Positions 21,058 through 50,664 of a DNA stretch of 58,499 bases are shown one piece after another. The position numbers were made by a program, and so were the translations under genes. Numbering within the stretch: position 1 is the first letter of the stretch; the number at the start of each line of letters is the position of its first letter. The notes beneath the pieces are model-generated. The model did not search any database. It was not told where the DNA came from and saw only the letters and a list, made by a program, of their open reading frames with translations. The stretch covers positions 1 to 58,499 of IMG/VR virus record IMGVR_UViG_3300022744_000032. One strand, given 5' to 3'. This DNA comes from a virus. Its lineage: Duplodnaviria; Caudoviricetes.

Positions 21058-21100
21058 TATAGGTGATACCTATTTTATGCAGGGTTGGCGGGGAATGCAA
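21058..21100 (-). promoter_or_regulatory. Sigma70-like late promoter overlapped by operator
   Basis: -35 TTGCAT (21100-21095), 17 bp spacer, -10 TAAAAT (21077-21072); operator TATAGG-TGATA-CCTATT 21058-21074. Confidence 0.7.
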
Positions 21101-21106
21101 CTGGTG

Positions 21107-21312
21107 CATGTCCAGGAAGAGGGTCCATGTCCAAGAAGAGGGTCCATGTCCATGTCCATGTCCATGTCCATGTCCATGTCCATGTCCATGTCCAGGAAGA
21201 TGGCCCATGTCCAGGAAGATGGTCCATGTCCAGGAAGATGGTCCATGTCCAGGAAGATGGTCCATGTCCAGGAAGATGGTCCATGTCCAGGAAGATGGTC
21301 CATGTCCATGTC
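21107..21312. repeat. Composite tandem repeat: eight 19-mers (CATGTCCAGGAAGATGGTC) plus extra CATGTC hexamers
   Basis: Two 19-mers, 7 extra hexamers, six 19-mers, 2 hexamers; read directly. Confidence 0.95.
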
Positions 21313-21515
21313 AAATGTAGGGTTATTTCCTTATGAAAAAAATTTCATAAATTTTTGTGTGAGTTGTGGTTGTGCACTTCGTAGCCGTAGCGGCAGTGAC
21401 AATGGACGAAGGGCAACAACCTATGTCATGGATCAGGAATTTGAACCTAGTCTTTTAGGATCCATATAGGGGGTTTTTATTTTTAGACAATATCGTCTAT
21501 CACAGGAGAAATAAC

Positions 21516-21785
21516 ATGGCTACTCTTCACATGATCGTTATCATTTTCGTTGTCGTTACCCACATCGTTGGCACGCTGGCTGGTATCAGCCTTATGCAAC
21601 TGCAAGGCAACAAACCGCGGAAATGGATGGCCATCGCAAACCCACTGTGTCTCGCTGGCTATGTGGCCCTCAGCTACCACTGGCTGGCAGCAGGGATCGT
21701 GATCTCGATCCTGTCCATTATCGGCCTCCTCGGCACTGACGCAGTAATCAATGCGGTCAAAGCAATGAACGCCGCCAAGGCATGA
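21516..21785 (+). CDS. Early membrane protein
   Basis: RBS CAGGAG; hydrophobic segments. Confidence 0.7.
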   Translation: MATLHMIVIIFVVVTHIVGTLAGISLMQLQGNKPRKWMAIANPLCLAGYVALSYHWLAAGIVISILSIIGLLGTDAVINAVKAMNAAKA

Positions 21786-21844
21786 CCAACTGCCCCCGCA
21801 TAGGGGGCTTTTGTCCATGGACCATTATCCATGAGGCAACCACC

Positions 21845-22129
21845 ATGAACCGTCAACGCAAAGTCGAATCCTATTATTTCACCACCAAATCCGTGCAAGC
21901 ATCCGACGGGAACCAGTACATGCACACGGTCCTTGTCAACAAGCACAACCCGGCGGAAGCCTGGATGCACTTGTTCGGCGGCGACGCCGAGGACATGGAC
22001 AGGCTCCAGAATGCTATCAAGGCGCGCGGGTGGTTCAACACGAAATGCGGCTGGAAACAGCTGCGCGTGCCCTTGATGGCAGTACCCACTACTACCCCAC
22101 AGGGTGAGCAACTATCGTTAAACCTGTAG
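21845..22129 (+). CDS. Early hypothetical protein
   Basis: RBS GAGG before ATG 21845. Confidence 0.7.
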   Translation: MNRQRKVESYYFTTKSVQASDGNQYMHTVLVNKHNPAEAWMHLFGGDAEDMDRLQNAIKARGWFNTKCGWKQLRVPLMAVPTTTPQGEQLSLNL

Positions 22130-22201
22130 CCACACAGAGCGATATCCAAGGCCCCTGATAGGGGGTTCTTGGTCATGGTCAATTAACCACGGAGAATTGC
22201 C

Positions 22202-22492
22202 ATGATTATTATCCCTATCATTCATACGGTTTTTATTATCGTGCTCATGTTCAGTGTCAAGTCCGAGAAACACGGTCGGTGGCTCTTGCGCTGGGCCATG
22301 AACAACATGATCACGTTCGAGGTCCTTGTCGGGCTATTCCTCGCATCAACACTCGGCGCGTTTGGCGGCGTGTTAGGCGTCTCGGAAGCGTCCATTGTCA
22401 TGGGCATGCTCTTCATCGCGAACCGCATCATCGGATACGGCTATCGCAACATCGAAACACTGAAACAGGAATGGAACAATGCCCCCGACTAG
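22202..22492 (+). CDS. Early membrane protein
   Basis: RBS GGAG; hydrophobic segments. Confidence 0.7.
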   Translation: MIIIPIIHTVFIIVLMFSVKSEKHGRWLLRWAMNNMITFEVLVGLFLASTLGAFGGVLGVSEASIVMGMLFIANRIIGYGYRNIETLKQEWNNAPD

Positions 22493-22599
22493 GGGGCTCT
22501 TGTCCATGGACATGAACATGTTCCACGACCACAACCCCGCACCCCGTAGGCGCCGAAACGACGGCGGAAATAGGTAGTTTCGAAACGATTTTACACTTT

Positions 22600-22830
22600 C
22601 GTATCGTAATACATCTGTTACCCTACTTTTTTCAACAAAAACAACGCGGTAACGGTAACAGATAAAACACCTCCCTACACATGAGACATGGATAAGGATA
22701 TGCACCCTTACCTCAGATAAAAAAATATATCTCTCTCCTATAAGAGTATGCATTTTTATCTGTTATCTGTTACCGCCTTTAGAATCAATCACTTACCGGT
22801 AACAGATGTTTTCATCTGTTACCCAATTTG
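22600..22830. other. Candidate replication origin (iteron-like 10-mers plus IHF site)
   Basis: ATCTGTTACC at 22613, 22765, 22814; inverted GGTAACAGAT at 22654, 22798; AATCAATCACTTA (22783-22795) fits the IHF consensus; AT-rich non-coding. Confidence 0.55.
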
Positions 22831-22992
22831 CTTGCTCTCCAGGTAAGGAACCACTAACGCACTAAAATAGGGCATTTTCTGCGGCAAATACGTAGCCGTA
22901 CGGTGTCCCAATACCCCTACAGTGTAGTAGGACATTGCAGTGCAATAGGGGGCTTTTATTTATGGTCAATTCCGGCCATTCAGGAGATTTTT

Positions 22993-23082
22993 ATGCCAAT
23001 CGACATCAACGTGGTCATCGACCAGATCGAAGAAAACGGCCCAGAATCCGTGGAACATTACCTCGACGAGGTCGAGATCTAG
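22993..23082 (+). CDS. 29-aa acidic early peptide
   Basis: MPIDINVVIDQIEENGPESVEHYLDEVEI; RBS CAGGAG; flanked by two TAGGGGG elements. Confidence 0.65.
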   Translation: MPIDINVVIDQIEENGPESVEHYLDEVEI

Positions 23083-23139
23083 CACCACACCAAGGCCCCC
23101 GAATAGGGGGTTTTTGGTCATGTCATTCACATAGGAGAT

Positions 23140-30373: not shown

Positions 30374-30682
30374 ATGAGCGAACAAGACGAACAGATCAGG
30401 AAGAAGTTTGAGCAAGCTTTTACAGTTCCAGAAGGTGTACGCTGGTGCAATCATCAAGAAATGTATACCGCCATTGATAAGTTTAGCGAAGACGATGGAA
30501 GAAATACCGTCCTTCAAAACGCAAAGCATAAAGCATACAAAGCAGGCCGCGAGAGTGTTGTCGTGGAGTTGCCTGCTGCAGAGAAGCAGACGTCACCGTA
30601 CACATGTTATGAAAACGGGTGGAACGATATGCGGCAAGAGACTATTGAAGCAATCAAAGCAGCAGGAGGCAGAATCAAGTAA
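30374..30682 (+). CDS. Hypothetical phage protein
   Basis: AGRESVVVELP...AIKAAGG pattern. Confidence 0.65.
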   Translation: MSEQDEQIRKKFEQAFTVPEGVRWCNHQEMYTAIDKFSEDDGRNTVLQNAKHKAYKAGRESVVVELPAAEKQTSPYTCYENGWNDMRQETIEAIKAAGGRIK

Positions 30683-30757
30683 ACAGAACACAGCCCCCTA
30701 CGTGCAGGGGCCCAAATCCTGCCCCTGGTCAGCCACATAGGGGGCTGTTTTCTGTTT
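30681..30757 (+). terminator. Long stem-loop (terminator or processing site)
   Basis: AAACAGAACACAGCCCCCTACGTG pairs with CACATAGGGGGCTGTTTTCTGTTT around an inner CAGGGGC/GCCCCTG hairpin. Confidence 0.55.
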
Positions 30758-30764
30758 ATTTTCC

Positions 30765-32184: not shown

Positions 32185-32505
32185 ATGAGTTTACCCGACG
32201 TAATCAATGTCATTTGCACTGTCACGCACAACAACAGTGTGCTTGGAAAAATCACAGTTCCTGTTGATATCAAACAGATCACTGACGAGTACGACAGCCT
32301 GGAAGAGGTTGATTCTGCGAATGTCCTGGATGATATCGCGACCAACGTCCTGGTTGAAATGGAACCTGAACAGGAAGAAATCGTGGACAACTGGCTTGCT
32401 GCCCATGCGCAAGTACAAGAACTCCAGCGTGAAAACAAACCCTACACACCGCTTAATGATGTCGAAGAGGGCCAGTTTATTTCCAGCGCAGAGATGTTCC
32501 TGTAA
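32185..32505 (+). CDS. Acidic hypothetical protein
   Basis: RBS CAGGAG; Asp/Glu-rich. Confidence 0.7.
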   Translation: MSLPDVINVICTVTHNNSVLGKITVPVDIKQITDEYDSLEEVDSANVLDDIATNVLVEMEPEQEEIVDNWLAAHAQVQELQRENKPYTPLNDVEEGQFISSAEMFL

Positions 32506-32774
32506 TGGTTTACGTACCAGACAAAGAAAAGAAACGTGAACAAGCGCGGGAATGGTGGCGCAAATACGGTCGCAGCCGGAATGAAAACGGAGAACGTTCC
32601 ATTTTTGATCCAGGCGAAGACCAGGAATTATTTTTCAAACGCGACATTTTACTACGCGTGAAATCATTAAAGGACACCGCCCATGCCGCAATCTTTTGCC
32701 GAGATGTTGAAACAGAGCCCCGAGATGCAAACGCAACTACGGGAAGCGTACGAAAAAGCGCTCGCAAAAAATGA
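32505..32774 (+). CDS. Hypothetical protein
   Basis: TAATG coupling. Confidence 0.55.
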   Translation: MVYVPDKEKKREQAREWWRKYGRSRNENGERSIFDPGEDQELFFKRDILLRVKSLKDTAHAAIFCRDVETEPRDANATTGSVRKSARKK

Positions 32775-33120
32775 AGACATATTTACTTGGCAATCACTGC
32801 CCTTTTTCACAGGGTATGTGCGATATCTTCTGGAGTATTGTGAAACGGAAAAAACTCCATGACCCCCGATACCCATTCTCAGCGCTGGTATTACAGATAC
32901 TTTTTTATTCAAATTCGTCAATTCTGACGACACTGATTCGTCTCCGCAGCACAACGAATCAGGCCCACCCGCTGCACAACCCGGAGCGTCTCAAATGAAC
33001 GAGAACGATATCCAGGCGCTTGACGCATTATTGGCTCATGCTGACCGACACAATTCTTTCGTCGGCATGGTTATTATTGCGGATGGTGCTTGCCCTCAAC
33101 CCACTCCACAGGAGTTCGAC

Positions 33121-33330
33121 ATGTCACAACCTCTCGTAGAAAGCAAAACACTGGTCCAAGGCGTTGATGTTGCCAAAGCCAGCAAAGACCAACTGATCGA
33201 TATGCTGAAACGTCTTGAAAAAGAAGAGACCGATCTGGCTGCGATCCGCACCGAAAGCACAAGCATCCAGGCACGTATCGCTGAAATCGGCGCTGCACGT
33301 ACCGCGGTAGCTCGCGCGCTCGACGCGTAA
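33121..33330 (+). CDS. Small coiled-coil protein
   Basis: RBS CAGGAG before ATG 33121. Confidence 0.65.
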   Translation: MSQPLVESKTLVQGVDVAKASKDQLIDMLKRLEKEETDLAAIRTESTSIQARIAEIGAARTAVARALDA

Positions 33331-33345
33331 TCCCTGAAGTAAACG

Positions 33346-33380
33346 AAAGCAGGCGCACTAACAACGCACCTGCTTTTTTC
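33346..33380 (+). terminator. Putative rho-independent terminator
   Basis: AAAGCAGG...CCTGCTTT stem followed by T-run. Confidence 0.55.
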
Positions 33381-33413
33381 TCACAACCTTGTTCACAAAT
33401 AGGAAAATGAACC

Positions 33414-33695
33414 ATGATCAATGTAAAAGTAGTGAAAGTTCCAGGCAATGCTACTGACCAGACCCTGAACGATGGCGCAACCGCTGCCGACGCCTTGCGT
33501 GTTGCCGGCCTGTCCCGCGCCAGCAACGAAGAGTTGCGTATCAACGGCCAGGTCCAGGCTGACACAACTGTGTTGCGCGACGGCGATCGCGTCATGCTGG
33601 TGCAGGGCGCAAAAGGCAATGCAGCCAAAAAACCGGCGGCAAAACCGGTAAAGAAACCTGCTTCAAAGCCAGCGAAAAAACCGGCCAAGAAGTAA
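33414..33695 (+). CDS. Ubiquitin-like (beta-grasp, ThiS/MoaD-like) protein with Lys/Ala/Pro-rich C-terminal extension
   Basis: INVKVVKVPG...GATAADAL...LRINGQ...LRDGDRVMLV-QGAKG|N pattern; upstream of E1, JAB and E2. Confidence 0.85.
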   Translation: MINVKVVKVPGNATDQTLNDGATAADALRVAGLSRASNEELRINGQVQADTTVLRDGDRVMLVQGAKGNAAKKPAAKPVKKPASKPAKKPAKK

Positions 33696-33701
33696 TCTGA
33701 A

Positions 33702-34141
33702 TTATCCTTCTCCAGGATGTGTATACATCAGTACGGGTGCCAACACATACCGTAATTCATGTCTATCGAGTGCTACACATATATTTTCCTGCTCGACAGG
33801 AATCTCGTGAACATAGATTGGACAGTAAGTCGGGTCTCGCGGCGCAGGAACATGCAATAACATCCTGGAGGGGGATAACTTTTTTGTTGGCTCAAGTCAG
33901 CGCCCGACGGCCGGCTGCTATGAGGTTCCCTGCTTTGACAGGCAACCGTCAAACGTCGCGAATCTGGGTTCCAGGTATCCATCGGGCGCTGACTTGAGCC
34001 AACAGAGATAATAAAAAGAAACACTATTTGGGTACTGCTACGCATACGCGTCTTGAGCGCCTATCGACGAACATACCAAAAAACCCAGTAGGGGCACTGC
34101 GCCCCGTTGATCGGGGGAGTAATAGTGTTTCCTTTTACTAT
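33702..34141 (+). ncRNA. Candidate structured RNA array: three tandem domains closed by long stems
   Basis: Stems 33702-33720/33860-33878, 33885-33907/33982-34004, 34012-34028/34121-34137. Confidence 0.6.
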
Positions 34142-34168
34142 TTCCCTCAACATTTACAGGAAAAATGT

Positions 34169-34867
34169 ATGTCAGACATTTCGTTAATCCGGCACCAGGC
34201 TATTTTTGATCCGAGCCTTCATCGTATACCCGTAACCATCATCGGTTGTGGTGCGACGGGTTCACGGATTTTTGCAGCACTTGTCGAACTGGGCGTGACC
34301 AATATCACGTGCTATGACTTCGATATTGTCGAGGCGCACAACCTGGCAAACCAGATTTTTGTTCACGCCGATATCGGAAAACCAAAAGTCGCAGGATTAG
34401 TTTCCTGGTACGCTGCGAAAACTGGAACAGCTCCGCCAAAAACAATGACATTTGTCCAGGAGAAAGTCGTTCATACCACAGAGATAGACATCGAAGGACA
34501 CATTGTATTTCTGCTCACAGATTCCATGGCATCCCGACGTGAATTATTCGAATGTTTCCTGTACCACGGACACGAAAAACCCCCATTGGCTGTGATCGAA
34601 ACACGCATGGCATCAACCCACGGCAATGTCATGTGGTATCGCCCGGAAGATGAAAAACAAACCAACGCGTGGGAAGCCACATTGTCTGACGATGAATCTA
34701 CCGAATTGAGCCCTTGCGGACAACCCATGTCCGTAGGTACGACCGCGTCCATTATCGCCAACCTCGCGGTGTGGCAATTCATCCTGCTTCATGTAAACCC
34801 GGAAGCAGCGAATAGCAAAGTCGATATTTACCTTAAACCCCTCATGGTAATCACAGGAGATTTATGA
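34169..34867 (+). CDS. E1-like ThiF-family adenylyltransferase
   Basis: IGCGATGS nucleotide-binding loop, DFDIVEAHNLANQ, IGKPKV, TDS, candidate catalytic SPCG; no CxxC zinc pairs. Confidence 0.92.
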   Translation: MSDISLIRHQAIFDPSLHRIPVTIIGCGATGSRIFAALVELGVTNITCYDFDIVEAHNLANQIFVHADIGKPKVAGLVSWYAAKTGTAPPKTMTFVQEKVVHTTEIDIEGHIVFLLTDSMASRRELFECFLYHGHEKPPLAVIETRMASTHGNVMWYRPEDEKQTNAWEATLSDDESTELSPCGQPMSVGTTASIIANLAVWQFILLHVNPEAANSKVDIYLKPLMVITGDL

Positions 34868-35787
34868 GCAAGAAAAAGAACCGTGTCATTACCTTGCCCT
34901 CACTCAAACGCCAGGAGAAACCGGCAATGCAACAACAAAGTGTACTCGCCCCCCCACCAAAAAAATGGGATTTTTCCGCAACTGATACAACAACGGCGAA
35001 TCTCGTAACGCCACTACGGACAAAAGCATCACTGGTCGCGCCCCGCGTATTTTACGCACCAACCGTGTTATCGGCGATTTACTATCTGGTGGATAAGTGC
35101 CCTCAGGAAATCGGCTGGCTAGGAACTGTGCAAGTAATGGGCAATGATTACTACATTGACCAGATCTATGTCCCGCAACAAATTGTATCGGGCACAGAAA
35201 CTGACATCTCCCCCGAAGCTATGGCGGCATTAGCGATCGAGATCATGGACGCGGGCAAAGACCCCGGTGCGCTGTACTACTGGGGCCACTCCCACGTAAA
35301 CATGGGGGTAACACCATCCGGACAGGATGAAACCCAGATCAATATGTACCTGGATAACTGCCCGGTATTTATCAGGGGGATTTATAACAAATCCCGAAAA
35401 CAAAAAGTGGATGTATTTGACACACGTGCCGGGATGGTATTCCAGAATGTAAACGCCGGCGTACACTACCCGATGAACAATGAAACAAAAGCACGCCTTG
35501 ACGCATTGATCACGAACAACGTCAAAACCCGGACGTACCAGACAACAACTTCCTGGAGTAAACCGGACCGCGATGCACAAGGAAACATCATTATTCCTCC
35601 CGTCGAAAGTTGTTATTCCTACAACACGATTGATGATGAATATGTATTCCCGCGCGGTATCCGGATTCGTTCGATCGATATTCCAGCTGATAAATTGCTG
35701 GAACTGGATGCGTTACTTGCTACCAAATTCAACGGGTACGGCGGCTATCGTCGTAATACAGGCAATTATCCTTCTGTAGGAGATTAA
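34864..35787 (+). CDS. JAB/JAMM metallo-isopeptidase
   Basis: EIGWLG...HSHVNMGVTPSGQD fits E...HxH-x7-S-x2-D. Confidence 0.9.
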   Translation: MSKKKNRVITLPSLKRQEKPAMQQQSVLAPPPKKWDFSATDTTTANLVTPLRTKASLVAPRVFYAPTVLSAIYYLVDKCPQEIGWLGTVQVMGNDYYIDQIYVPQQIVSGTETDISPEAMAALAIEIMDAGKDPGALYYWGHSHVNMGVTPSGQDETQINMYLDNCPVFIRGIYNKSRKQKVDVFDTRAGMVFQNVNAGVHYPMNNETKARLDALITNNVKTRTYQTTTSWSKPDRDAQGNIIIPPVESCYSYNTIDDEYVFPRGIRIRSIDIPADKLLELDALLATKFNGYGGYRRNTGNYPSVGD

Positions 35788-35788
35788 T

Positions 35789-37939
35789 ATGCGTCGCAAA
35801 AAATTCCGTAATAGTCGACCACTACACATGATGGACACATTCCCAGTACCTTCTGCTATATTGCGTAGCGGGCCATTGTCTTTACCTGCTCCTTTATATA
35901 AAGGAAAATACTCTGTAGATATGCAAAATGCAGTAATTGCACAACAAAATTCAGAACGCGCCCTTATTACCATAGAGGAGGGTATTAATACATATTCTGA
36001 AGAGATCGACCAACAGCAAGAATTGGCGAATACCCCTATCCCACAAAATCTTCCTGAAGTTTTTGTTGACATACTAGCGAGCAACCAACGTAGAGCGCAC
36101 ACTAGCATAATGCATCTTGAAGCTCGCCGCCTAGATGGTAAAAACTCACGTATAAATGCCATCGCCGAGATAGATCTGGCGATAAAAAACCAGAGTTACT
36201 TCAGTCCAAAATGTAAAGTTATTACCTCGAGAGATATTGTGCGAACCATCCGCCAACACCCGATGGTAAGCAAAACAGCAAAGATCCGGTTTTATGATAA
36301 CTATGTTATTTTCCGCACGATACCTATTTTATTGCAACCAAACAGCAACCCATATAAATGGATAAATAACGGAGGACCAGTTGTTGTTAAACTAGCCCCG
36401 ATGATTATCAGGGTCCATACAAAAACCATGGAAATCCGCATCCAGGCAGCGGAACACGGTGGATGGCGATCTAATTCACACTGGGACTACGCACCACACC
36501 CCCATGTTTTGAACAACGGAAAACCTTGTTTTGGTGATTTCGGACCGCCGATCGCAGAAACAATCGCTGAAGGAGATTTCGCCCTTATGCTGGATGTGCT
36601 TTACGCTTTTCTGCGTACTGCAGACAGCGGTGATTCCGCAGGAAAACACTGGCCTATGTTTCTTTTACCTGCTAACTGGCAACGAGATTCCAGGATGTTC
36701 AGCAGCACGGAACGACTTACACATGAATCCGTTTTGATAAATGGCACCGAATATACCCTCCAAGTGGATGATAATGGTGCGGTTACATATACCCCCTGGG
36801 AATGGAGGATTCCGCAGAATATACTCCCTGGCGTATTTCCTGAACGTCCTTTTCTTAAATTCTGGGATGGCACCAGTCTAATAGAAACCGGGGATATCGT
36901 TATACTCAATGGCACATACCCTCGGTGTGTTGCAGTTGATAACAAGGGAACAATTTTTTATGCAGAACAAAACGATCACCCTGCGATAACTCCGCGCAGT
37001 CAATGGAAGGCCATCGACGGCAATATCAGGGTGTCATCACTTATTAATATGGCAAACAAAAAAGAGATTTGTGCACGATATATTAATGATGTTTGGCGTC
37101 GACTACACGAAACAGAAAAACTGCGTGCTACAGCCCAGCAGCGCTGGAACCAATGGTTCCATACAACTCCACAACGGCCCAGCTGGAACCCCGGGCTTGT
37201 AGAGGTACATAGCGTAGGAAATTCCCTCCTGGTGATGAAGGTATTGAAAAGCATTTCTGTGCGTACCCAAGGACCGGGTTCGCGCCTTTTGCATAAATTG
37301 CCGGGCGAAACACTTCGTTTGGCGCACGACTATGATTGGTCAAAATTTCATGTTGAACAAACAGTAGAACCGGTACTTTTGCCTCCGACCACTGAACCTC
37401 CTGCAACTGAACTCCATGTAATAGTAGGACAGGAACCCTATAGCCTACGCGCATGGAATGGAACATCCCCCCTGCAAGCAAATGATGTTGTCTGTTGGCG
37501 AACCAATCCTACAATAGAGGGGTTCTGTGTAATAGCACCCCCGGGAGAGGAGGACCGTACTAATAGTGTACGAATTCTGCGTGACGGCACACTCCCGTGG
37601 GGGATTGCCCTAACAGCAGCGGCCCCCCGCGATGGCTTCATCACTCCACCACAAGAACTCCTGGAAGAATATTGGCACCAAGTAACCTTGCAGGCTCTGA
37701 TGGCAAATAACGCGGCCCAACGCCGCGAGGCTACCGACGCCACTCAAGAACCAGCACCGCAACCTGAAGAAAACCTTATCAGCCGAGCGCAGGCACGCAT
37801 GGATGCCGCACAAGCGCATTTAGTGTACTTAACTGCTTTGCGAGATAATGGCGGGGAACCGGTTATTATTACCCCTATGGATGTGGACATTTTAGGCCGG
37901 GGCGGCATTCCAGCACCCGAATGGTGTGAGGTGTGGTAA
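35789..37939 (+). CDS. Large protein with coiled coil, E2/UBC-like domain and long unknown C-terminal region
   Basis: HPHVLNNGKPCFG (Cys247) resembles the E2 HP[NH]...C active-site loop; operonic with E1, JAB and Ubl. Confidence 0.7.
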   Translation: MRRKKFRNSRPLHMMDTFPVPSAILRSGPLSLPAPLYKGKYSVDMQNAVIAQQNSERALITIEEGINTYSEEIDQQQELANTPIPQNLPEVFVDILASNQRRAHTSIMHLEARRLDGKNSRINAIAEIDLAIKNQSYFSPKCKVITSRDIVRTIRQHPMVSKTAKIRFYDNYVIFRTIPILLQPNSNPYKWINNGGPVVVKLAPMIIRVHTKTMEIRIQAAEHGGWRSNSHWDYAPHPHVLNNGKPCFGDFGPPIAETIAEGDFALMLDVLYAFLRTADSGDSAGKHWPMFLLPANWQRDSRMFSSTERLTHESVLINGTEYTLQVDDNGAVTYTPWEWRIPQNILPGVFPERPFLKFWDGTSLIETGDIVILNGTYPRCVAVDNKGTIFYAEQNDHPAITPRSQWKAIDGNIRVSSLINMANKKEICARYINDVWRRLHETEKLRATAQQRWNQWFHTTPQRPSWNPGLVEVHSVGNSLLVMKVLKSISVRTQGPGSRLLHKLPGETLRLAHDYDWSKFHVEQTVEPVLLPPTTEPPATELHVIVGQEPYSLRAWNGTSPLQANDVVCWRTNPTIEGFCVIAPPGEEDRTNSVRILRDGTLPWGIALTAAAPRDGFITPPQELLEEYWHQVTLQALMANNAAQRREATDATQEPAPQPEENLISRAQARMDAAQAHLVYLTALRDNGGEPVIITPMDVDILGRGGIPAPEWCEVW

Positions 37940-42776: not shown

Positions 42777-42788
42777 GTACTACCTATA
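42772..42788. promoter_or_regulatory. 17-bp operator
   Basis: CATAGG-TACTA-CCTATA spanning stop/start junction. Confidence 0.7.
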
Positions 42789-43552
42789 TGACGTACACTC
42801 CTCCAGGGCCGGTATTCCAACCCGGCGTAAAATTGTCGATCCAGGATATCGCCCCGGATGCACAAAGTGGACTCGTAAAATCGTGGAGTTATTCCACGTT
42901 GAAAAAATTCGAGCAATGCCCCTATGCCGTATTTTTGTCCAAAGTTAAAAAGATACCTACGGAACAAGGCGAAGCCGCCGCTCGCGGGGAACGGATTCAC
43001 TTGCTGGGTGAACAATTCATCAAAGGTGAGTTAGAGGAATTCCCGGAAGAATTCAAACGCTACCGCGCGGGGCTCGAAAACCTGCGCGACCAATTCAATA
43101 TAGGCATGGCACGTGCCGAAGACGAATGGGCATTTACGTCAACCCTCACTCCCACGCTATGGACTGCCCCAGATGCCTGGTGCCGCATGAAACTGGACGC
43201 GCTGGAATTCAACGACGACACCTGCGTCACGGTTACAGATTTCAAGACCGGCCGTAAATTCGGCAACGAAATGGCACACGGACAGCAGTTACAGCTGTAT
43301 GCGATCGCAACATGTTGGACCTACCCCCAAGTCGAATACATCAAAACGCAGTGCTGGTATCTGGACCGGGACGAAGGCCCACTTAAACAAGAATACACCC
43401 GGACAGAAGCTCTCAGTTTTCAACCCCGGTGGACACAACGCGCGTTGAATTTAACCACGACCGTGAAATTTCCCCCGCAGCCTTCAAAAAATAATTGCCG
43501 GTGGTGTGATTTCGCTAAAAACGAAACATGCGAATGGAGATATCGACAATGA
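42788..43552 (+). CDS. PD-(D/E)XK (Cas4/RecB-like) exonuclease
   Basis: WSYSTLKKFEQCP, KLD...DFKTG, QLQLYA, CRWCDF...C. Confidence 0.88.
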   Translation: MTYTPPGPVFQPGVKLSIQDIAPDAQSGLVKSWSYSTLKKFEQCPYAVFLSKVKKIPTEQGEAAARGERIHLLGEQFIKGELEEFPEEFKRYRAGLENLRDQFNIGMARAEDEWAFTSTLTPTLWTAPDAWCRMKLDALEFNDDTCVTVTDFKTGRKFGNEMAHGQQLQLYAIATCWTYPQVEYIKTQCWYLDRDEGPLKQEYTRTEALSFQPRWTQRALNLTTTVKFPPQPSKNNCRWCDFAKNETCEWRYRQ

Positions 43553-43604
43553 TCTGGCTGGTTGAGTTACGCCTACACCTTGTTGAATTCCAACAGGAGT
43601 AAAT

Positions 43605-43751
43605 ATGGAAACTATCTACATCACTTGTGAAAACGGCGTCGTCACCGGAGTGTACACAACTACTCCACGGCACGATGTTGATGTCCAGGTTATTAACCTC
43701 GACACCACGCCCTCTGCAGTAGTTCCTGAAAGCGCATACCAACTTTATTGA
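43605..43751 (+). CDS. Small hypothetical protein (48 aa)
   Basis: RBS CAGGAG; METIYITCENGVVTGVY... Confidence 0.55.
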   Translation: METIYITCENGVVTGVYTTTPRHDVDVQVINLDTTPSAVVPESAYQLY

Positions 43752-43758
43752 GGATTTT

Positions 43759-44169
43759 ATGAGCAGTTTCATGTGCAGTGACAAACATATCGCAACCATT
43801 GTTAATTGGAGCGATGAACGCGAATTTTGTGGGTATAACAAACAACCCCGTGATTTCAGCCAGAAAGCAGTTACATGTCAGGAAATGGAACGCCTGAATC
43901 TCGAAGCACTGCATGTACGGTATCGAGATGAAATGGCACTTCCGAAACCCCTTGATGAATGGATCAAAATTCTACGGGGCCTACCCAATACCGCCCGTCC
44001 TGGCAGCGCTGCAGCGATGGCAAAACTTATCGGCTGCTTTCTCTACCAATGTGATGAAAGCCAGGCAATTCGCGAAAGCATTACGTTTACCACAATGCAA
44101 GGCGTAGAAAAAACCGCACTTATTCAAGCTGCGGGTATGAAATACGACGACGCTCCCTGGAGTATTTAA
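43759..44169 (+). CDS. Hypothetical protein
   Basis: MSSFMCSDKHI...NLEALHVRY...CFLYQCDE...APW pattern. Confidence 0.7.
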   Translation: MSSFMCSDKHIATIVNWSDEREFCGYNKQPRDFSQKAVTCQEMERLNLEALHVRYRDEMALPKPLDEWIKILRGLPNTARPGSAAAMAKLIGCFLYQCDESQAIRESITFTTMQGVEKTALIQAAGMKYDDAPWSI

Positions 44170-44170
44170 T

Positions 44171-44353
44171 ATGGACTATGGCTGGGTACGACAAGCAGAG
44201 ACACTGGCACTACTGAACGAATGCAAACTCGCTTTGTATGAAATCAAAAACACACGGTTACGTGCAACAGCCAGTAAAGATACCTACGAACTGGTAAAGA
44301 AAATCGAAAATTTCCTGGAGAAAAAAGATGTCAACGTACCGCCAGAATCTTGA
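44171..44353 (+). CDS. Small hypothetical protein
   Basis: RBS GGAG; co-oriented. Confidence 0.55.
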   Translation: MDYGWVRQAETLALLNECKLALYEIKNTRLRATASKDTYELVKKIENFLEKKDVNVPPES

Positions 44354-44513
44354 AAAACTGTTTTGCGCGCGCATGCCACTGGATCGCCTGGTCAGTGCAA
44401 AAGAGAACAATATTGATGCGCTCGAAATGCTCACGCAACTGGTTAATGCCTCTGTTGAAAACCAGGCATTGAAAACTGAAGTCGAAAAACTAAAGGCGGC
44501 GTCCAATGGATAG
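44328..44513 (+). CDS. Small hypothetical protein
   Basis: RBS GGAG; overlaps neighbours. Confidence 0.55.
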   Translation: MSTYRQNLEKLFCARMPLDRLVSAKENNIDALEMLTQLVNASVENQALKTEVEKLKAASNG

Positions 44514-45909
44514 TATCAACACTAAACCTTTGTTCGAATCGCAGCAACGATTCATCAATTTCGCGTTGAGCCATACCAGCGGGTATCGAATTTTCAACAC
44601 CAGTGACCCCGGTACTGGAAAAACACGGGCGTCGCTCGAAGCCTGGCACCAATCCCCCAATCGAAAACGACTGCTGGTAGTTGCCCCGCTTTCAATCTTG
44701 CGCCCCGCCTGGGGGCAGGATATCGAGACCTACTTCCCTGGAGTAGGTTTCCGGATCGCGCACGGTTCGTCCGAAGAACGATTAGCGGCGTTTACTTCCT
44801 GCGCTGATGTTGTTCTGATCAACCACGACGGCGTGAAATGGATCCAGGCCGCAGTAAATGACAAGAAACTGGACCTGAAAGATTTCAGTCACCTGATCAT
44901 CGATGAATTCACGGCGTTCAAGCACCGGGAAACGCAACGCGGACACAGTGCATTACATCTATCCTCGCGAATTGAGAACATGATCCTATTGGGTGGTACC
45001 CCAAACAGTAATGAAGTCACTGACATCTGGTTCCCTGCGTATCTATTAGATCGCGGCATGCGACTAGGAGATAGTTTTTTCCGATTCCGCATGCAGGTCG
45101 CAAACAGCAAACAAGTCGGCCCGAAACCCAACATGGTGAAATGGGTTGAACGCGTTGGCGCGCGGGAATGGATTGCTGACAAACTTCGCGACATCACTTT
45201 TCGCGTAACACTCGAAGAATGCCTGGATATGCCTGAGCACATCGTTAATACGATGTACATCGATATGCCGATGCCCGTCATGAAGCATTACCAGGCGATG
45301 GAGAAATTCTCTATCACGGAATTTGATGGGTACATGGTCGATGCTGTGCACGCCGGTGCGCGAGCGAAAAAATTACTCCAGATTTTATCCGGCGCAGTGT
45401 ACCGCCCTGATGGAGAAATCCAGAAGGTATTCAACGACCGGTATGAACTGGTCCTGGATCTGGTTGAACAACGCGAACATTGTGTTGTTGCGTTTAACTG
45501 GAAGCACGAACGCGATGGGCTCCTCGCAGAGGCAAAACGCCGCGGGTTACGGTACGGCGTCATTGACGGTGACACGCCCCCGGATATGCGAAATACAATT
45601 ACCACCCAATTCCAGGCGGGCGAATTGGATGTAATTTTCGCACACCCACAAAGCGCGGCGCATGGTTTTACCTGGACCCGTGGCACGACAACGATCTGGT
45701 GCAGTCCTACGTACAACGCTGAACATTATCAACAATTCAACCGCCGCATTTACCGTGCAGGCCAGACACAACGAACAGAAACCATCCGTATTGCAGCGCG
45801 GGATACCTGTGAAGAAGCTGTATACAACACGCTCGACGGAAAAATGACCAGCATGCAAGATTTACTTGCATTGATGTGCGACATGACACGCTTACGGGAG
45901 GCAGGATAA
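44506..45909 (+). CDS. SNF2-like superfamily II helicase
   Basis: DPGTGKT, LVVAP, IIDEF, LGGTP, QFNRRIYRAGQ. Confidence 0.9.
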   Translation: MDSINTKPLFESQQRFINFALSHTSGYRIFNTSDPGTGKTRASLEAWHQSPNRKRLLVVAPLSILRPAWGQDIETYFPGVGFRIAHGSSEERLAAFTSCADVVLINHDGVKWIQAAVNDKKLDLKDFSHLIIDEFTAFKHRETQRGHSALHLSSRIENMILLGGTPNSNEVTDIWFPAYLLDRGMRLGDSFFRFRMQVANSKQVGPKPNMVKWVERVGAREWIADKLRDITFRVTLEECLDMPEHIVNTMYIDMPMPVMKHYQAMEKFSITEFDGYMVDAVHAGARAKKLLQILSGAVYRPDGEIQKVFNDRYELVLDLVEQREHCVVAFNWKHERDGLLAEAKRRGLRYGVIDGDTPPDMRNTITTQFQAGELDVIFAHPQSAAHGFTWTRGTTTIWCSPTYNAEHYQQFNRRIYRAGQTQRTETIRIAARDTCEEAVYNTLDGKMTSMQDLLALMCDMTRLREAG

Positions 45910-46102
45910 TGCCACTTTTTGGAGGATTTTTGCCCGCACTTTATTTCAAACGCTGCTATTTTGATCGGCACGGCAGATTATTTTTACCTGTCAATCGTCA
46001 TGCCCCTGCTCCTTCCACTGCAGTTGAATCAGGGTCCGCCCTGTGCTTCGAATGGCTGGGGCATGGGGTTATCGTTTTAATCACAGATATCCGGGAGCTA
46101 GT

Positions 46103-46477
46103 ATGAATTTAACTGCATTATCACTGGAGCTGGATAATATCCGGCAACAAAAGAAGGAGGTAAATGCTACGCTAAAAACGCTCACAGACCGTGAAGATGT
46201 TTTACTCCGCGACATTCACCGGCAAATGGAAGATATCGGGGCAGATAACCTGACTATTTCCGGGCTGAAATTCGCTCGTGTAGAAGAAACTACAGCAACA
46301 CCAGATCCTGATTTTTGGCAGGATATATTTAACTGGATTGCTTCGACCGAAAACTGGCAGTTGATACGTAAGCAACTCAACGTAACTTCTGTCCGTGAGC
46401 TGGCTGATATTGGCCAGCAAATCCCGCATGTCACCATCGGCAAAACTGAAAAACTGAAAGTAACGAATATCGCGTAG
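46103..46477 (+). CDS. Conserved phage coiled-coil protein of the replication module
   Basis: RBS GGGAG; typical neighbour of SNF2/SSB genes. Confidence 0.7.
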   Translation: MNLTALSLELDNIRQQKKEVNATLKTLTDREDVLLRDIHRQMEDIGADNLTISGLKFARVEETTATPDPDFWQDIFNWIASTENWQLIRKQLNVTSVRELADIGQQIPHVTIGKTEKLKVTNIA

Positions 46478-46533
46478 TTGCATTTTTGCAAAACCCGCGG
46501 TAATCTCGCTGCACAGTATAGGTATTGCCTATT
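46478..46533 (+). promoter_or_regulatory. Sigma70-like promoter followed by operator
   Basis: TTGCAT, 17 bp spacer, TAATCT; operator TATAGG-TATTG-CCTATT 46517-46533. Confidence 0.65.
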
Positions 46534-46573
46534 GGATCGACAGACACTAACCAGCAAAAAAGGTACATTAACC

Positions 46574-47284
46574 ATGGCTAAAGAACCCGCTTCACCGACC
46601 AATGAAATGGTCGTATTCAGTTTTGGTGACAAAGCTGATGTTGCCCCTCCTTCTCACTTGATCGCCGACGCCCCGCAAGGCAATGATTCTGTTTCCGCAG
46701 ATGACATGGCGATGCCGCGCATCAAATTGATGCAACCACTATCCCCTGAAGTGGACGGCGAAAAAGTAAAGGCCGGCATGTTCCTGAACACGATCTCCGG
46801 GCGTGCGTACAACGAACTGATCGTGGTCAATCTGCACTTCCATCGCTCGTTTGCAGTGTACAAAAAACGCGATCTCGGCGGCGGTTTCGTCGGTTCTGCT
46901 GAAACAGAAGCAGCTGCCCAGGAACTGGTTGCAGGCAATCCAGGCAACGCATCGGATTACGAGATCCAGGAAACTGCGCGCCACACACTGGTCGTGCTGG
47001 ATCCTGTTACAGGCGAACCGACAGAAACAGTAGCCCTGTTCTTGTCGAGCAAATCTGCCCTGTACAGTTCTCGTGCATGGAATACGGAAATCCAGACTGT
47101 CGGCGCGAAAACTGATCGTTTCGCAATGGCATGGAAACTGTCTTCCGAGAAGGTTTCCAACTCAAAAGGTTCCTGGTACAACATCAATACCGAGTTCCTT
47201 GGCTGGGCCCCGCAAGCGCTGCATGCGGAAATGAAAAAGTTGTTCGCCGCGATCAATGGCGCACAAATTGCCGAAGCTGCGTAA
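46574..47284 (+). CDS. Putative ssDNA-binding protein
   Basis: DMAMPRIKLMQPLSPEV...NSKGSWY pattern; own promoter and terminator. Confidence 0.6.
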   Translation: MAKEPASPTNEMVVFSFGDKADVAPPSHLIADAPQGNDSVSADDMAMPRIKLMQPLSPEVDGEKVKAGMFLNTISGRAYNELIVVNLHFHRSFAVYKKRDLGGGFVGSAETEAAAQELVAGNPGNASDYEIQETARHTLVVLDPVTGEPTETVALFLSSKSALYSSRAWNTEIQTVGAKTDRFAMAWKLSSEKVSNSKGSWYNINTEFLGWAPQALHAEMKKLFAAINGAQIAEAA

Positions 47285-47291
47285 AAGAATC

Positions 47292-47317
47292 GCCGCCCCA
47301 CAAGGGCGGCTATTTTT
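47292..47317 (+). terminator. Rho-independent terminator
   Basis: GCCGCCC-CACAA-GGGCGGC-TATTTTT. Confidence 0.75.
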
Positions 47318-47914
47318 ATGAACGAACACACTTTTATCAACAGTATTCATTCGAAACTCCCCCCGGCAGTGTATCGGTGGAAGATTAACGACACGAACCA
47401 ATTAGGGGTGAGTGACGCATTTTATTCTGGCCCACATGGCCACATTTTTTGTGAGTATAAGTGGCTTCCTGCGCTACCGAAACGCCCGGATACCCCTGTG
47501 AAAATTGACCTATCACAAATACAACTGCACTGGTTACGGGGAAGACACATTGACAATATAGGTGTCGCCGTTATTCTGGCAACCCCTGCTGGAGTTTTTA
47601 TTCTCCAGAACTGTGAATGGGAACGCATCTGGCGGACCCACGAAGTACAATCACGGTTACGCCCGCGTGCTGACCTTATTGATTGGATCAGCGCCTACTG
47701 CTTAGGAGCAGAGTATGGCCAAGAGAGAACTGAACCCCGCCGAAATTCGCGCCGCCACAAGATTGCGGAATTTATATTTACGCCACAACAAGGCCACGGG
47801 CGTGACACAAGTCGAATTGGCCGAAAAAGTGCTGGGCATCAAACAAGCAACACTGAACCAGTACCTGAACGGAGTAATTCCGATCGGATTAGAGATCCTG
47901 TTGCAGTTTGCTGA
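47318..47914 (+). CDS. VRR-NUC-like nuclease / resolvase
   Basis: GVSDAF...FCEYK...LSQIQLHWL. Confidence 0.7.
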   Translation: MNEHTFINSIHSKLPPAVYRWKINDTNQLGVSDAFYSGPHGHIFCEYKWLPALPKRPDTPVKIDLSQIQLHWLRGRHIDNIGVAVILATPAGVFILQNCEWERIWRTHEVQSRLRPRADLIDWISAYCLGAEYGQERTEPRRNSRRHKIAEFIFTPQQGHGRDTSRIGRKSAGHQTSNTEPVPERSNSDRIRDPVAVC

Positions 47915-48353
47915 CATTTTTAATGTTCTGCCTGAAGATATTTACCCGGAAAAAATTACAAACATCCGACCGATACTGCAACGACTACAGGAAAAAATTA
48001 TACCGGTTATGGGCACATTATCTGGAAACCAATCTGATGTACCGCAAATCGCGGTGATGAACCTGAATCTCCCGCAACACTGTTACGCAGTCAGTGTTGA
48101 TACCGAGGAGTACAGTGAAGTAGCGCCACGTGGGACATTTTTACTGGTCAATCCTATGGGACTCTTACGCCCTGGTGCACGCGTAGTATTTTGTTTCGTA
48201 AAAGAAGCGATCACACACTACGTGCGACTGGTAGAAATTACAGCTGACCATTTGCACTACACCGATATGTGTACAGGAAAAAAACACAAGCAGCCGCTCA
48301 CCAACATCTGCAAACTCCATGCAGTGTGCGGGGAGCAATACCCGCCTATCTAG
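47715..48353 (+). CDS. XRE/CI-like repressor with degenerate S24-like C-terminal domain
   Basis: TQVELAEKVLGIKQATLNQYLNG HTH; PRGTFLLVNP. Confidence 0.8.
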   Translation: MAKRELNPAEIRAATRLRNLYLRHNKATGVTQVELAEKVLGIKQATLNQYLNGVIPIGLEILLQFADIFNVLPEDIYPEKITNIRPILQRLQEKIIPVMGTLSGNQSDVPQIAVMNLNLPQHCYAVSVDTEEYSEVAPRGTFLLVNPMGLLRPGARVVFCFVKEAITHYVRLVEITADHLHYTDMCTGKKHKQPLTNICKLHAVCGEQYPPI

Positions 48354-48372
48354 GCGTTTTTATCCACTCGAT

Positions 48373-48389
48373 TATAGGTATGCCCTATG
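48373..48389. promoter_or_regulatory. 17-bp operator
   Basis: TATAGG-TATGC-CCTATG overlapping next start codon. Confidence 0.6.
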
Positions 48390-48782
48390 CTTAAAACGAT
48401 AACTCGACCGCAGTTACTTACCCTGGCAAAGATCACATTCGGTGCGTGCATCGTCATCATGGAAGCAAAAAACCGCGATTACGCCGGCGGTGGTAGTGAT
48501 CCGCTCGCCAATTTCCGTGCAAGTGAAACACTCGGCGTTCCTCCTGAAATTGGCCTACTCATGCGCTGCATGGATAAATTCAAACGTATCCAGGCATTCG
48601 TCAATACAGGCACACTGTCTGTGAAAAACGAACCAGTTGAAGATGCAATCCGGGACGTGATCAATTACATGATCCTGCTCCTGGCTATGGTCGAAGAACG
48701 TAAATTTGCCGCAGCAAAACCTGTGAAGGAAGCGCGAAATGGCAAGAAAGTTCCGCCCGGTTCTACCAAGTCAAAACGCTAA
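48387..48782 (+). CDS. DUF1599/Nmad1-like all-alpha nucleotide-metabolism protein
   Basis: KNRDYA...ANF...DKFKRI...EDAIRDVINY. Confidence 0.7.
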   Translation: MLKTITRPQLLTLAKITFGACIVIMEAKNRDYAGGGSDPLANFRASETLGVPPEIGLLMRCMDKFKRIQAFVNTGTLSVKNEPVEDAIRDVINYMILLLAMVEERKFAAAKPVKEARNGKKVPPGSTKSKR

Positions 48783-49110
48783 AGTACAAAAGCTGGAGGA
48801 ACTCGCCAGGGCACTTGCTTCTGACGAGTACGCCCCGGAAAGTGATCCTCAATGGAATCACTGGCTTTCGTACTATACAGCGAGCTATGGGGACAGCATT
48901 CCGATCGCTGTGGTGATCAGGCTGTCCCCCGAGCTACGAATCCCCCGAATTCGACAACACTCGAAAATAGGAAACCTTGCCCATGTCCCAGTCGCCCAAT
49001 ATCTCGCCTACCGTCTTCGACAATCCCATGATCCCACTCGAGATCGCCCTATGGGACGCAAAGACGATAGCCACTTATTTAAGGCGCGACTCCGTGAAAT
49101 CGGTCCTTGA
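48739..49110 (+). CDS. Hypothetical protein
   Basis: RBS AAGGA; overlaps neighbours. Confidence 0.45.
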   Translation: MARKFRPVLPSQNAKVQKLEELARALASDEYAPESDPQWNHWLSYYTASYGDSIPIAVVIRLSPELRIPRIRQHSKIGNLAHVPVAQYLAYRLRQSHDPTRDRPMGRKDDSHLFKARLREIGP

Positions 49111-49234
49111 AACTGTCGTTGTCGTACCGGGGTTCCCACGCCCTGTCAGAATCCCCACAACCCGTGGGCCAGGGCAGCCTCGGTGGAAAGCGGTAGAAGT
49201 CATCGCTTACGTTGAGAGTTTCCAAGTACAGTGA
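48983..49234 (+). CDS. Excisionase / AlpA-like protein
   Basis: LWDAKTIATYL...PGFPRPVRI...PRWKAVEV. Confidence 0.75.
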   Translation: MSQSPNISPTVFDNPMIPLEIALWDAKTIATYLRRDSVKSVLETVVVVPGFPRPVRIPTTRGPGQPRWKAVEVIAYVESFQVQ

Positions 49235-49243
49235 GGATACACA

Positions 49244-49606
49244 ATGCGTGAATTAACTGAACACAAAGTAAATCCGGCCAATGACATTCTCCAGGTAATG
49301 GTTGTGGACGAACCCGGCGCAGGCAATGCTTGTCATGCGTACGACATCTCCGGCGGAGAAGCCATACCTACGCATATCCGGTTCCAGAACGGCCCTATCA
49401 ATGTCGGCGGGAATGGCGTAAACGGTATTACCAATGAGGCGCTACTTGCTATTGTGGCGGACCGTCTACGTGGCTTCCAAAGTGGGCCATTTGCGTGTAA
49501 GGCCAACGCCTGCGCGCTTACCCACATTGAAGAAGCGCTGCACTGGTTGCAACAACGTACGCTAGAACGTATGCGCCGCGGTGTTGAAGGAACACATACT
49601 GTTTAA
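49244..49606 (+). CDS. tad1: Tad1-family anti-defence signal sponge
   Basis: PGAGNACHAY...IRFQNG...DRLRGFQSGPFACKANACALTHIEEALHW...R..RGVEGT. Confidence 0.8.
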   Translation: MRELTEHKVNPANDILQVMVVDEPGAGNACHAYDISGGEAIPTHIRFQNGPINVGGNGVNGITNEALLAIVADRLRGFQSGPFACKANACALTHIEEALHWLQQRTLERMRRGVEGTHTV

Positions 49607-49689
49607 CAGCAGGCGACCCAGCTGCATGGGCCGGGGGTTAATCGCCACGCTGCACGCCTGAGCCTTACAGGGGTAAAGAAAGGCACCCA

Positions 49690-50664
49690 TTAAAGTTTTT
49701 TCGCCAACTCTGATGCCGGCTCCTGGTAATAGACCATGAGCATTTTCAGATCCGTGTGGCCTGTCATGCGGGCCAATTCCATCACCCCCAGTTTTTTTGA
49801 TAACCGACTTGTTGCCTCCCGCCGTGTGTCATGAAAATGAATATCTGCGATCCCGCACCGAGCTTTTGCCTTTCGAAACGTCACATCCAGTATTGTCGGT
49901 TTGAGCTGGAATACCGTCTCCCCCCAAGGTTGGAGTAATTCCAGCAAACCTACCGCCCGCATGGACAGCGGCACATCCCTTGAAAATCCATTCTTGGTCA
50001 TGGACAAGTGCACCGTCCGCGCCCCTAGATCCACATCTTTGGGTGAAATTCCACAAATTTCCCCCGCCCGCATCGCCGTTTCGATAGCAAATAACATAGC
50101 CACTGCCACGCGTTGTTTTACTTTTTCCGGTGGGGTTTCATCAAACCCCAACGCGAGGCACAGCTGCTCAATTTCGCTATCCGCAATCCGCCGTGTCCGT
50201 GCCCGTGGTGCTGGCGGCCGGCGAACATCCCGTGCAACATTTACATCAATCCATCTCCACTCCCGGCGGGCAATTTCCAGTGCATGCCCAACCAGCCCCA
50301 TTTCCCGTCTCACCGAAGCAGCCCCCACTTCTTGCGCCCGTACATCTTTCCACGCCGCGAGCACGTCCACTGTCAGGGCAGGGAGTTTTATCGCAGCAAT
50401 CGGGTATGTACATAGCCGCTGGAGCCGGATTGTCTCTGTCCGTGCCCCACGTTTTGCTGGCACAACCTCCGCCATGTATCGCCGTAGGACATCACCGAGT
50501 GTACAATCCGCCACGCGTTGCGCGCGGGTTTGCTGTAGCACGGCTTCTTGCTGTTGCGCCCAGGCACGGGCTTCGGTCTTTGACGGGAATGTAGCGGAAG
50601 CACGTTGTCCATTGACATGAACCTCGGCCCGCCACGATGCACCACGTTTCCTGTACGTAGCCAT
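49690..50664 (-). CDS. int: Tyrosine integrase
   Basis: AMRAGEI, TKNG, HFHDTRREA, TGH, YY catalytic set. Confidence 0.93.
   Translation of the reverse strand: MATYRKRGASWRAEVHVNGQRASATFPSKTEARAWAQQQEAVLQQTRAQRVADCTLGDVLRRYMAEVVPAKRGARTETIRLQRLCTYPIAAIKLPALTVDVLAAWKDVRAQEVGAASVRREMGLVGHALEIARREWRWIDVNVARDVRRPPAPRARTRRIADSEIEQLCLALGFDETPPEKVKQRVAVAMLFAIETAMRAGEICGISPKDVDLGARTVHLSMTKNGFSRDVPLSMRAVGLLELLQPWGETVFQLKPTILDVTFRKAKARCGIADIHFHDTRREATSRLSKKLGVMELARMTGHTDLKMLMVYYQEPASELAKKL

Follow-up and report, generated by a model that had tools for sequence, protein, structure and literature searches.

The locus considered here raises a simple question: why does a phage operon, whose enzyme genes follow one another without a spacer, carry a 473-nt non-coding gap directly after its Ubl gene, and what is the role of the three long inverted repeats that fill it? 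The operon lies on a 58,499-bp IMG/VR virus record, with a completeness rating of 93%, which constitutes the whole stretch of DNA analysed and is referred to below as the window. Its genes and the gap, together with a hairpin that precedes them, are as follows.

33346-33382, + strand: terminator-like hairpin followed by T6; 14 pairs, ending about 30 nt before the Ubl start
33414-33695, + strand: Ubl gene, 93 aa; beta-grasp core, then a 24-aa Lys/Pro/Ala-rich tail after a conserved AKGN
33696-34168, + strand: the whole non-coding spacer, 473 nt, bounded by the stop codon of Ubl (33693-33695) and the E1 ATG at 34169
34169-34867, + strand: E1, ThiF family, 232 aa (Pfam E 8.1e-20); start backed by alignment to relatives
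34864-35787, + strand: JAB/JAMM-like peptidase, 40% identical to the homologue in locus L007 (E 2e-42); overlaps the E1 stop
35789-37939, + strand: putative E2-like protein, 716 aa, with an HPH..PC.GDFGP core; its homologue lies between Ubl and E1 in most relatives

A first-pass annotation of the DNA had called the two genes flanking the gap as Ubl and E1, and both assignments are now supported independently, the latter by the ThiF match listed above. A structural model of Ubl, built on seven homologues (pLDDT 80.7, with the first 65 residues near 90), yielded 46 matches in the PDB at E <= 0.001, with SUMO at the top and ubiquitin, MoaD and ThiS among the others, and the protein gave a weak match to Pfam ThiS (E 0.0077) that falls below the cut-off. 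The 24-aa tail, AAKKPAAKPVKKPASKPAKKPAKK, is encoded at 33621-33692 by short direct repeats, and the model shows it as disordered. It is reminiscent of the basic extensions found on eukaryotic ubiquitin precursors and would have to be removed before conjugation; all six Ubl homologues stop one or two residues past the AKGN motif. The JAB-like protein produced no Pfam match and carries a readable HxH-x7-S-xx-D motif. No match to Pfam, PHROG, NCBIfam or PADLOC was found for the 716-aa protein, which is provisionally read as E2-like from its HPH..PC.GDFGP core; it carries HPHVLNNGKPCFGDFGPP, with a His-Pro-x ... Cys spacing that we take to resemble the HPN...Cys core of E2 enzymes.

The E1 and JAB open reading frames overlap by 4 nt and the E2-like frame begins 2 nt after the JAB stop, such that the gap is the sole spacer within the Ubl-E1-JAB-E2-like operon. 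An AGGA sequence occurs 8 nt upstream of the E1 start. Since the JAB and E2-like genes follow E1 without a spacer, it is plausible that the gap is co-transcribed with the operon. Genes for a DNA polymerase and a primase-helicase are located downstream of the operon and, further along, the region 42788-50664 encodes a PD-(D/E)XK nuclease, a SNF2-type helicase, a Pam3 gp34-like protein, an HTH protein and a tyrosine integrase. A temperate lifestyle is probable.

The first-pass annotation considered that the 473-bp gap holds no credible open reading frame and we reach the same conclusion. Five frames of 30-92 aa are present and none yielded a convincing Pfam or PHROG family, the best match (E 0.0064) being under the cut-off. 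A gene remnant was also sought, by comparing 1801 stop-to-stop open reading frames of related loci with the gap using tblastn, and was rejected; the best result, with an antisense frame, reached E 1.8e-5 per query, which is non-significant over 1801 queries. Extension of the Ubl tail into the gap by frameshifting or readthrough was likewise rejected, with the A-rich codons of the tail being out of slippery register and the -1 frame stopping at 33698; in the 0 frame, a stop is reached 20 codons past the Ubl TAA. No tRNA or tmRNA was detected within the window. The region 32500-36500 was reproduced, with 0 differences, by an independent contig of sequencing run X1 (possibly the source sample). 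Run X2, made from a further freshwater sample of a different study, yielded a contig of 259 nt that is identical to 32855-33113, outside the gap, at a depth of 2.1; the phage, or a near twin, is present elsewhere. Both runs are of DNA, and a look-up of sequencing runs containing the phage returned none of RNA.

The inverted repeats of the gap define three modules, which are listed below together with a short T-run.

33702-33878, + strand: module 1, 177 nt; arms 33702-33720/33860-33878, 19 pairs (2 G-U on the + strand), interior 139 nt
33879-33885, + strand: C followed by T6, directly 3' of the 3' arm of stem 1, read from the sequence
33885-34004, + strand: module 2, 120 nt; arms 33885-33910/33979-34004, an imperfect palindrome throughout
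34005-34144, + strand: module 3, 140 nt; A/T-rich arms 34005-34028/34121-34144, 24 positions

Stem 2 has a core of 23 perfect pairs (33885-33907/33982-34004) that can be lengthened to 26 on its inner side, at the cost of one C-A mismatch, and by four more pairs on its outer side, two of them G-U, and module 2 is 70% self-complementary across its 120 nt. The core of stem 3 (34012-34028/34121-34137) is paired at 16 of 17 positions and, over the full 24 positions, carries three non-Watson-Crick pairs, one G-U and two A-C on the + strand. On that strand the contiguous duplex extends over 27 pairs for stem 2, when the G-U extension is included, and over 19 for stem 1; that of stem 3 is interrupted. 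The interiors of modules 1, 2 and 3 measure 139, 68 and 92 nt, respectively, and the modules are spaced by 6 nt (1 to 2) and 0 nt (2 to 3), with the first beginning 6 nt past the Ubl stop and the last ending 24 nt short of the E1 start. The earlier description of three tandem domains, each closed by a different long inverted repeat, is therefore accurate, with arms of 19, 26 and 24 nt tiling the gap, and its coordinates and pair counts for the stems (19 with two G-U, 23 perfect and 16 of 17) were reproduced. The modules show no paralogy to one another, their best mutual match being 11 nt with an E value of about 1.

Stem 1 together with its CT6 tail looks like a terminator with a very large loop. 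The hairpin upstream of Ubl was listed on the - strand, at 33346-33376, by the terminator scan and its + strand T-run was read from the sequence; no promoter was called between this hairpin (33346-33382) and the Ubl start. Ubl would then have a terminator-like hairpin on either side, and read-through may be needed for its expression.

An arrangement of this kind is not expected by chance. Inverted segments were scored without gaps, using a threshold of at least 13, the score of the weakest observed stem. Among 500 dinucleotide shuffles of the gap, one such segment was found in a single shuffle and three in none. When 473-nt windows were moved along the phage genome, a segment reaching the threshold occurred in 16 of 581, clustered at about five places, and three were found together only in the gap. 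Folding of the whole gap gave energies of -180.9 kcal/mol on the + strand and -191.9 kcal/mol on the - strand, corresponding to z values of -7.78 and -9.88, and on neither strand did any of 100 shuffles fold as well. The presence of the three stems is thus a real and statistically strong observation.

The same does not extend to the sequences that the stems enclose. Folded alone, the loops of modules 1, 2 and 3 gave z values of -0.79, -0.53 and +0.49 on the + strand, a level that shuffles also reach, and of +0.72, -2.18 and -0.54 on the - strand, such that the fold signal comes from the three closing stems only. The inner hairpins that had been pointed out earlier within the loops are indeed present and are not significant, with shuffled sequence yielding equal structure. 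A motif shared by modules 1 and 3, TGCTAC(A/G)CATA, had been noted with the caution that it may be due to chance, and this caution was justified. The form TGCTAC(A/G)CAT has exactly two sites in the window, both inside the gap, and when one mismatch is allowed there are seven matches in the window against 6.9 expected.

Structured or repetitive non-coding DNA also occurs elsewhere in the phage, where other spacers fold at z values between -2.5 and -4.9. Six copies of a TAGGGGGCT(T)TT-type motif, spaced at 158-456 nt, are distributed over 21465-23122, and a motif of the same type is contained in a hairpin with 28-nt arms at 30677-30761, followed by a T-rich run; taken together, they have the look of phage terminators or regulatory hairpins belonging to one family. 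A non-coding array at the end of the structural module (21085-21335) repeats a 19-nt unit, GTCCATGTCCAGGAAGATG, roughly 9-10 times and includes runs of the hexamer GTCCAT; it is a candidate origin or packaging/regulatory site.

Whether the stems act as RNA or as DNA may be judged, in part, from their imperfections. They contain six non-Watson-Crick positions, all of transition type, which on the + strand divide into three G-U and three A-C, and the three A-C positions would be G-U on the - strand. Both of those in stem 1 are G-U on the + strand, and its energy favours that strand (-31.2 kcal/mol, compared with -26.0). Stem 2 shows little preference (-50.5 on the + strand against -54.5 kcal/mol on the - strand) and stem 3 favours the - strand (-19.1 against -23.1 kcal/mol). 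In a 921-nt context of the + strand, the pair probabilities were 0.97, 0.96 and 0.02 for stems 1, 2 and 3, respectively, compared with 0.89, 0.98 and 0.83 on the - strand. All genes neighbouring the gap lie on the + strand and a consensus scan detected no sigma-70-like promoter in or near the gap on either strand. Taken together, the stem mismatches favour neither strand, and an even split between G-U and A-C, with transitions only, is the pattern expected of strand-blind DNA palindromes. The data allow a + strand RNA function for modules 1 and 2 and are fitted equally well by such palindromes.

Sequence searches yielded neither a family nor a second copy. A search of 33300-34500 against Rfam 15 returned six matches at E <= 10, all far below the gathering scores, the best being to the plant miRNA hairpin model MIR5387 for module 2 on the - strand (31.9 bits against a gathering score of 69), which is a generic resemblance between long hairpins. 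This accords with the statement in the first-pass annotation that no RNA family could be recognised. The same region gave nothing in blastn searches against 50,697 phage records, nor did the gap against 72,556 plasmid records. No further module copies were found in the window or in four related virus records (L014 not among them), and exact 20-mers taken from all three modules were absent from IMG/VR, a search by exact words that would miss diverged copies. An 18-mer from stem 2 matched 24 contigs in a genome collection of 185,579 species, where about 17 are expected by chance, and each of these matches involved a single arm, with no second arm and no extended similarity. No antisense match of the modules to the rest of the phage was seen.

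Scans with E1 produced 5 related loci from IMG/VR and 16 from metagenome contigs, all at <=56% identity, and neither these scans nor a DNA-polymerase scan of IMG/VR yielded anything closer. The closest relative, G001, is a complete 59.5-kb phage that shares structural and replication genes with the window phage, mostly at 30-55% amino-acid identity, and from these shared genes it is a true but distant kin. Its record begins with an array (L030, 44-238) of eight copies of CTGCTACACA, seven direct and one inverted, and the likeness of this unit to the TGCTAC(A/G)CATA pair of the gap is probably a coincidence. The three-repeat gap is known from a single metagenomic phage for which no close relatives are on hand, and its value at present is that of a pointer rather than a result.

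In most of the related loci the genes are ordered Ubl-E2-like-E1-JAB. The order Ubl-E1-JAB-E2-like is found in the window and in L019, L023 and L010, with other open reading frames intervening between Ubl and E1 in L010. When loci L007-L023 are compared, the gap is seen to occupy the place that the E2-like gene has in the more common order. Provirus G003, to which L010 belongs, has a tandem pair of Ubl genes (72 and 71 aa) at 1470-1986 of that locus, with about 2 kb of small open reading frames between the pair and E1.

All seven related contigs with a readable Ubl end, representing five lineages, have 46-100 nt between Ubl and the next gene, including 60 nt in L019, which shares the gene order of the window. 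Homologous operons thus lack the gap, a finding that the first-pass annotation had named beforehand as one that would count against its main proposal, an array of small structured RNAs; a comparable gap was seen in 0 of the 7 contigs. What they do carry, in all five lineages, is a single hairpin about 6-15 nt past the Ubl stop. On the + strand the spacers fold with z values of -4.42 (L008), -4.04 (L014), -2.80 (L007), -1.82 (L019) and -1.05 (L010), and T-runs, T6 in L014 and T7 in L019, come after the hairpin, giving the form of an ordinary intrinsic terminator. Comparison of L008, L009 and L015 with L014 revealed that 4 of 15 hairpin pairs had changed on both sides and were still paired, and that one more had become G-U on the + strand. 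Such compensatory pairs, which concern the small hairpins of the relatives, effectively from two lineages, and not the three stems of the window, provide a modest indication of selection for an RNA hairpin after Ubl, in what is the sole spacer of operons whose genes are otherwise coupled.

Tentatively, we favour the possibility that, in this lineage alone, the terminator or processing spacer that follows Ubl has been enlarged by about 400 nt to give the gap, which would act in cis. The spacer would form part of the Ubl-E1-JAB-E2-like mRNA. Stem 1, with its CUUUUUU tail, could then serve both as a partial terminator and as a 3' protective hairpin for an abundant Ubl message, and the 23-27-bp duplex of stem 2 could provide a cleavage or binding site for a double-strand-specific, RNase III-type, enzyme, with processing there separating the fates of the Ubl and enzyme messages. 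As + strand RNA, module 3 is of marginal stability; it may be a passenger. Overall, one would expect a stable and abundant Ubl message, less enzyme message, and more Ubl than enzymes. We infer each of these steps, from transcription through the gap, via termination and cleavage, to the effect on the ratio of Ubl to enzymes.

Several observations led to this proposal. Stem 1 lies at the position of the relatives' hairpin and has a like T-run; the gap is the sole spacer in a coupled operon and its stems 1 and 2 are predicted to pair almost completely on the + strand; other long-stem hairpins with T-runs occur in the same direction (30677-30761 and 33346-33376); and no open reading frame, Rfam family or module copy was found in the collections searched. 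RNase III substrates require about two helical turns, some 20 bp or more, of near-continuous double-stranded RNA, and stem 2, as a predicted substrate only, has this length with its 23 perfect pairs or 27 including G-U. The 139-nt loop of stem 1 is far outside the range of usual terminators, and the base of the stem is A-U rich; it was not called by the terminator consensus scan, which allows loops of 3-8 nt only. Against an enlarged cis-acting spacer stand the two A-C positions of stem 3 and its low pairing on the + strand, the even split of mismatches, the better fold of the - strand and the interiors that fold at chance level. Moreover, a spacer of 46-100 nt suffices in the relatives, and the ancestral role would thus not require the additional 400 nt. 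A more modest option offered in the first-pass annotation, that the spacer may simply set the stoichiometry of Ubl to E1, gains some support from the hairpin found in each related lineage, the T-runs in two of them and the four compensatory pairs.

Comparable designs are known. Intercistronic hairpins and leaky terminators include the RNase III sites of phage T7 and the hairpin that follows lantibiotic precursor-peptide genes. Like these, the gap comes directly after the gene for a small, stoichiometrically consumed product and before those for enzymes, and the relatives carry such small hairpins; it differs in that intercistronic hairpins are local and extend over tens of nucleotides, whereas the three gap stems enclose loops of 68-139 nt and together take up 473 nt. 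The RNase III processing stems that flank 16S and 23S rRNA in rrn operons provide a second likeness, with long-range repeats of about two helical turns, large loops and a tandem arrangement in one transcript, but there the enclosed rRNA is functional, structured and conserved, and the interiors of the gap modules are unconserved and unstructured beyond chance. The gap is most likely to be likened to the intercistronic structured spacers, a known kind, and not to a new RNA family.

The strand-blind pattern of mismatches, 6 of 6 being transitions split 3:3 between the strands, leads to a different explanation, namely that the modules are palindromic insertions at the DNA level, MITE-like or foldback elements of a size similar to the Correia elements (CREE), which either landed in the post-Ubl spacer or grew from it. 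Such elements would be of a selfish or neutral nature, with any effect through RNA arising incidentally. We regard this explanation, the main rival, as unlikely, if worth serious attention. The unstructured interiors, the restriction to one lineage and the abutting of the modules, with 0-6 nt between them, would all be accommodated. In a published account of MITEs, they are defined by terminal inverted repeats of at least 10-15 bp and an overall length of 50-800 bp, and modules of 120-177 bp with arms of 19-26 bp fit this definition; the same account reports MITEs in only 0.01% of viral genomes (PMC11602168). The modules have the inverted repeats and non-coding size of MITEs but not the target-site duplication, taken as 2-10 bp flanking the element, since the flanks read CTGAA|..|CTTTT, TTTTT|..|GAGAT and CAACA|..|CCTCA. 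Nor did they show the multiple copies of a MITE, in searches that, for the large collections, used exact words; no second copy came from the window, the four related records, phage and plasmid blastn or the IMG/VR 20-mers, and the 24 genome matches to the stem 2 18-mer are single-arm and at chance level. In addition, with arms that are mutually unrelated, three separate families lying side by side would be required. If mobile DNA were nevertheless the explanation, the locus would offer a rare example of a single phage spacer in which several MITE-like elements are stacked.

CREE, or NEMIS, of Neisseria are instructive in this respect. They carry 26-bp inverted repeats around a 50-100-bp core, 104-157 bp overall, dimensions that the modules fit; they often lie within transcribed intergenic regions, with one copy inside a prophage, and their stem in the mRNA binds RNase III and is cleaved or protected, with a change in the expression of neighbouring genes (PMC2649163). 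They form a single multi-copy family, described only from Neisseria, whose repeat and core are conserved and which has a target duplication (PMC2649163). Taken as an analogy, CREE combine both leading readings of the gap, palindromic insertion and cis-acting RNA. The gap modules, by comparison, are three unrelated, single-copy sequences without target duplication in a freshwater phage, and since tests for copy number and target duplication gave neither, they work like CREE at best and are not members of that family.

It is improbable that the gap yields three discrete, stable small RNAs, cut out at the closing stems, much as RNase III does with rRNA precursors, and acting in trans or as scaffolds or substrates for Ubl, the proposal closest to that of the first-pass annotation. 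Closing stems of about two helical turns and the tight tiling of the gap are in keeping with it, and the polybasic tail of the Ubl precursor could conceivably bind nucleic acid. The bacterial Y RNAs, located between rsr and rtcB, also offer a precedent for tandem non-coding RNAs embedded in an operon. However, the modules have no Rfam match, their interiors do not fold beyond the level of shuffles, pairing of stem 3 on the + strand is weak, antisense matches to the rest of the phage are lacking, and nothing comparable exists in the seven related contigs with a readable Ubl end or elsewhere in the four related records. An array of small structured RNAs, as originally envisaged, is therefore left unsupported by the Rfam search, the loops at chance level, the pair probability of 0.02 for stem 3 on the + strand and the relatives without a gap. 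A specific version, whereby the stems would release up to three RNAs of 120-180 nt that work with the Ubl system, for example by binding the polybasic precursor tail or by timing maturation by JAB, is very doubtful; if true, it would mark the first case in which RNA forms part of a Ubl conjugation pathway, prokaryotic or viral.

Inverted repeats of 19-26 bp flanking segments of 68-139 bp also match the typical geometry of invertons, and the tyrosine recombinase encoded at 49690-50664 might in principle flip such segments and thereby gate expression of E1, JAB and the E2-like protein. We consider this highly unlikely: no sigma-70-like promoter occurs in the gap on either strand, the three repeat pairs lack a common core, and the recombinase gene lies 16 kb off and looks like that of the phage's integrase. 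One orientation was present in two assemblies, although contigs cannot show minor forms. Least probable of all is a DNA site for replication or protein binding (an origin, primosome loading site or operator) next to the replication module, a proposal that draws on the location of the gap, with the genes for DNA polymerase and primase-helicase 4 kb downstream, and on the resemblance of the two TGCTAC(A/G)CATA copies to the CTGCTACACA iterons of G001, and that conflicts with the window's own strong iteron array elsewhere (21085-21335), the chance-level frequency of the two-copy motif when one mismatch is allowed, the absence of an IHF consensus from the gap and the relatives with nothing at this position.

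If the gap does act in cis as an enlarged post-Ubl spacer, it would represent an extreme form of a common design, in which a structured spacer keeps a consumed small protein above the level of its enzymes, and it would imply that the family of phage Ubl-E1-JAB-E2-like operons regulates the dosage of Ubl at the RNA level. The conserved small hairpin of the relatives would then constitute the more general, and the more testable, part of this claim.
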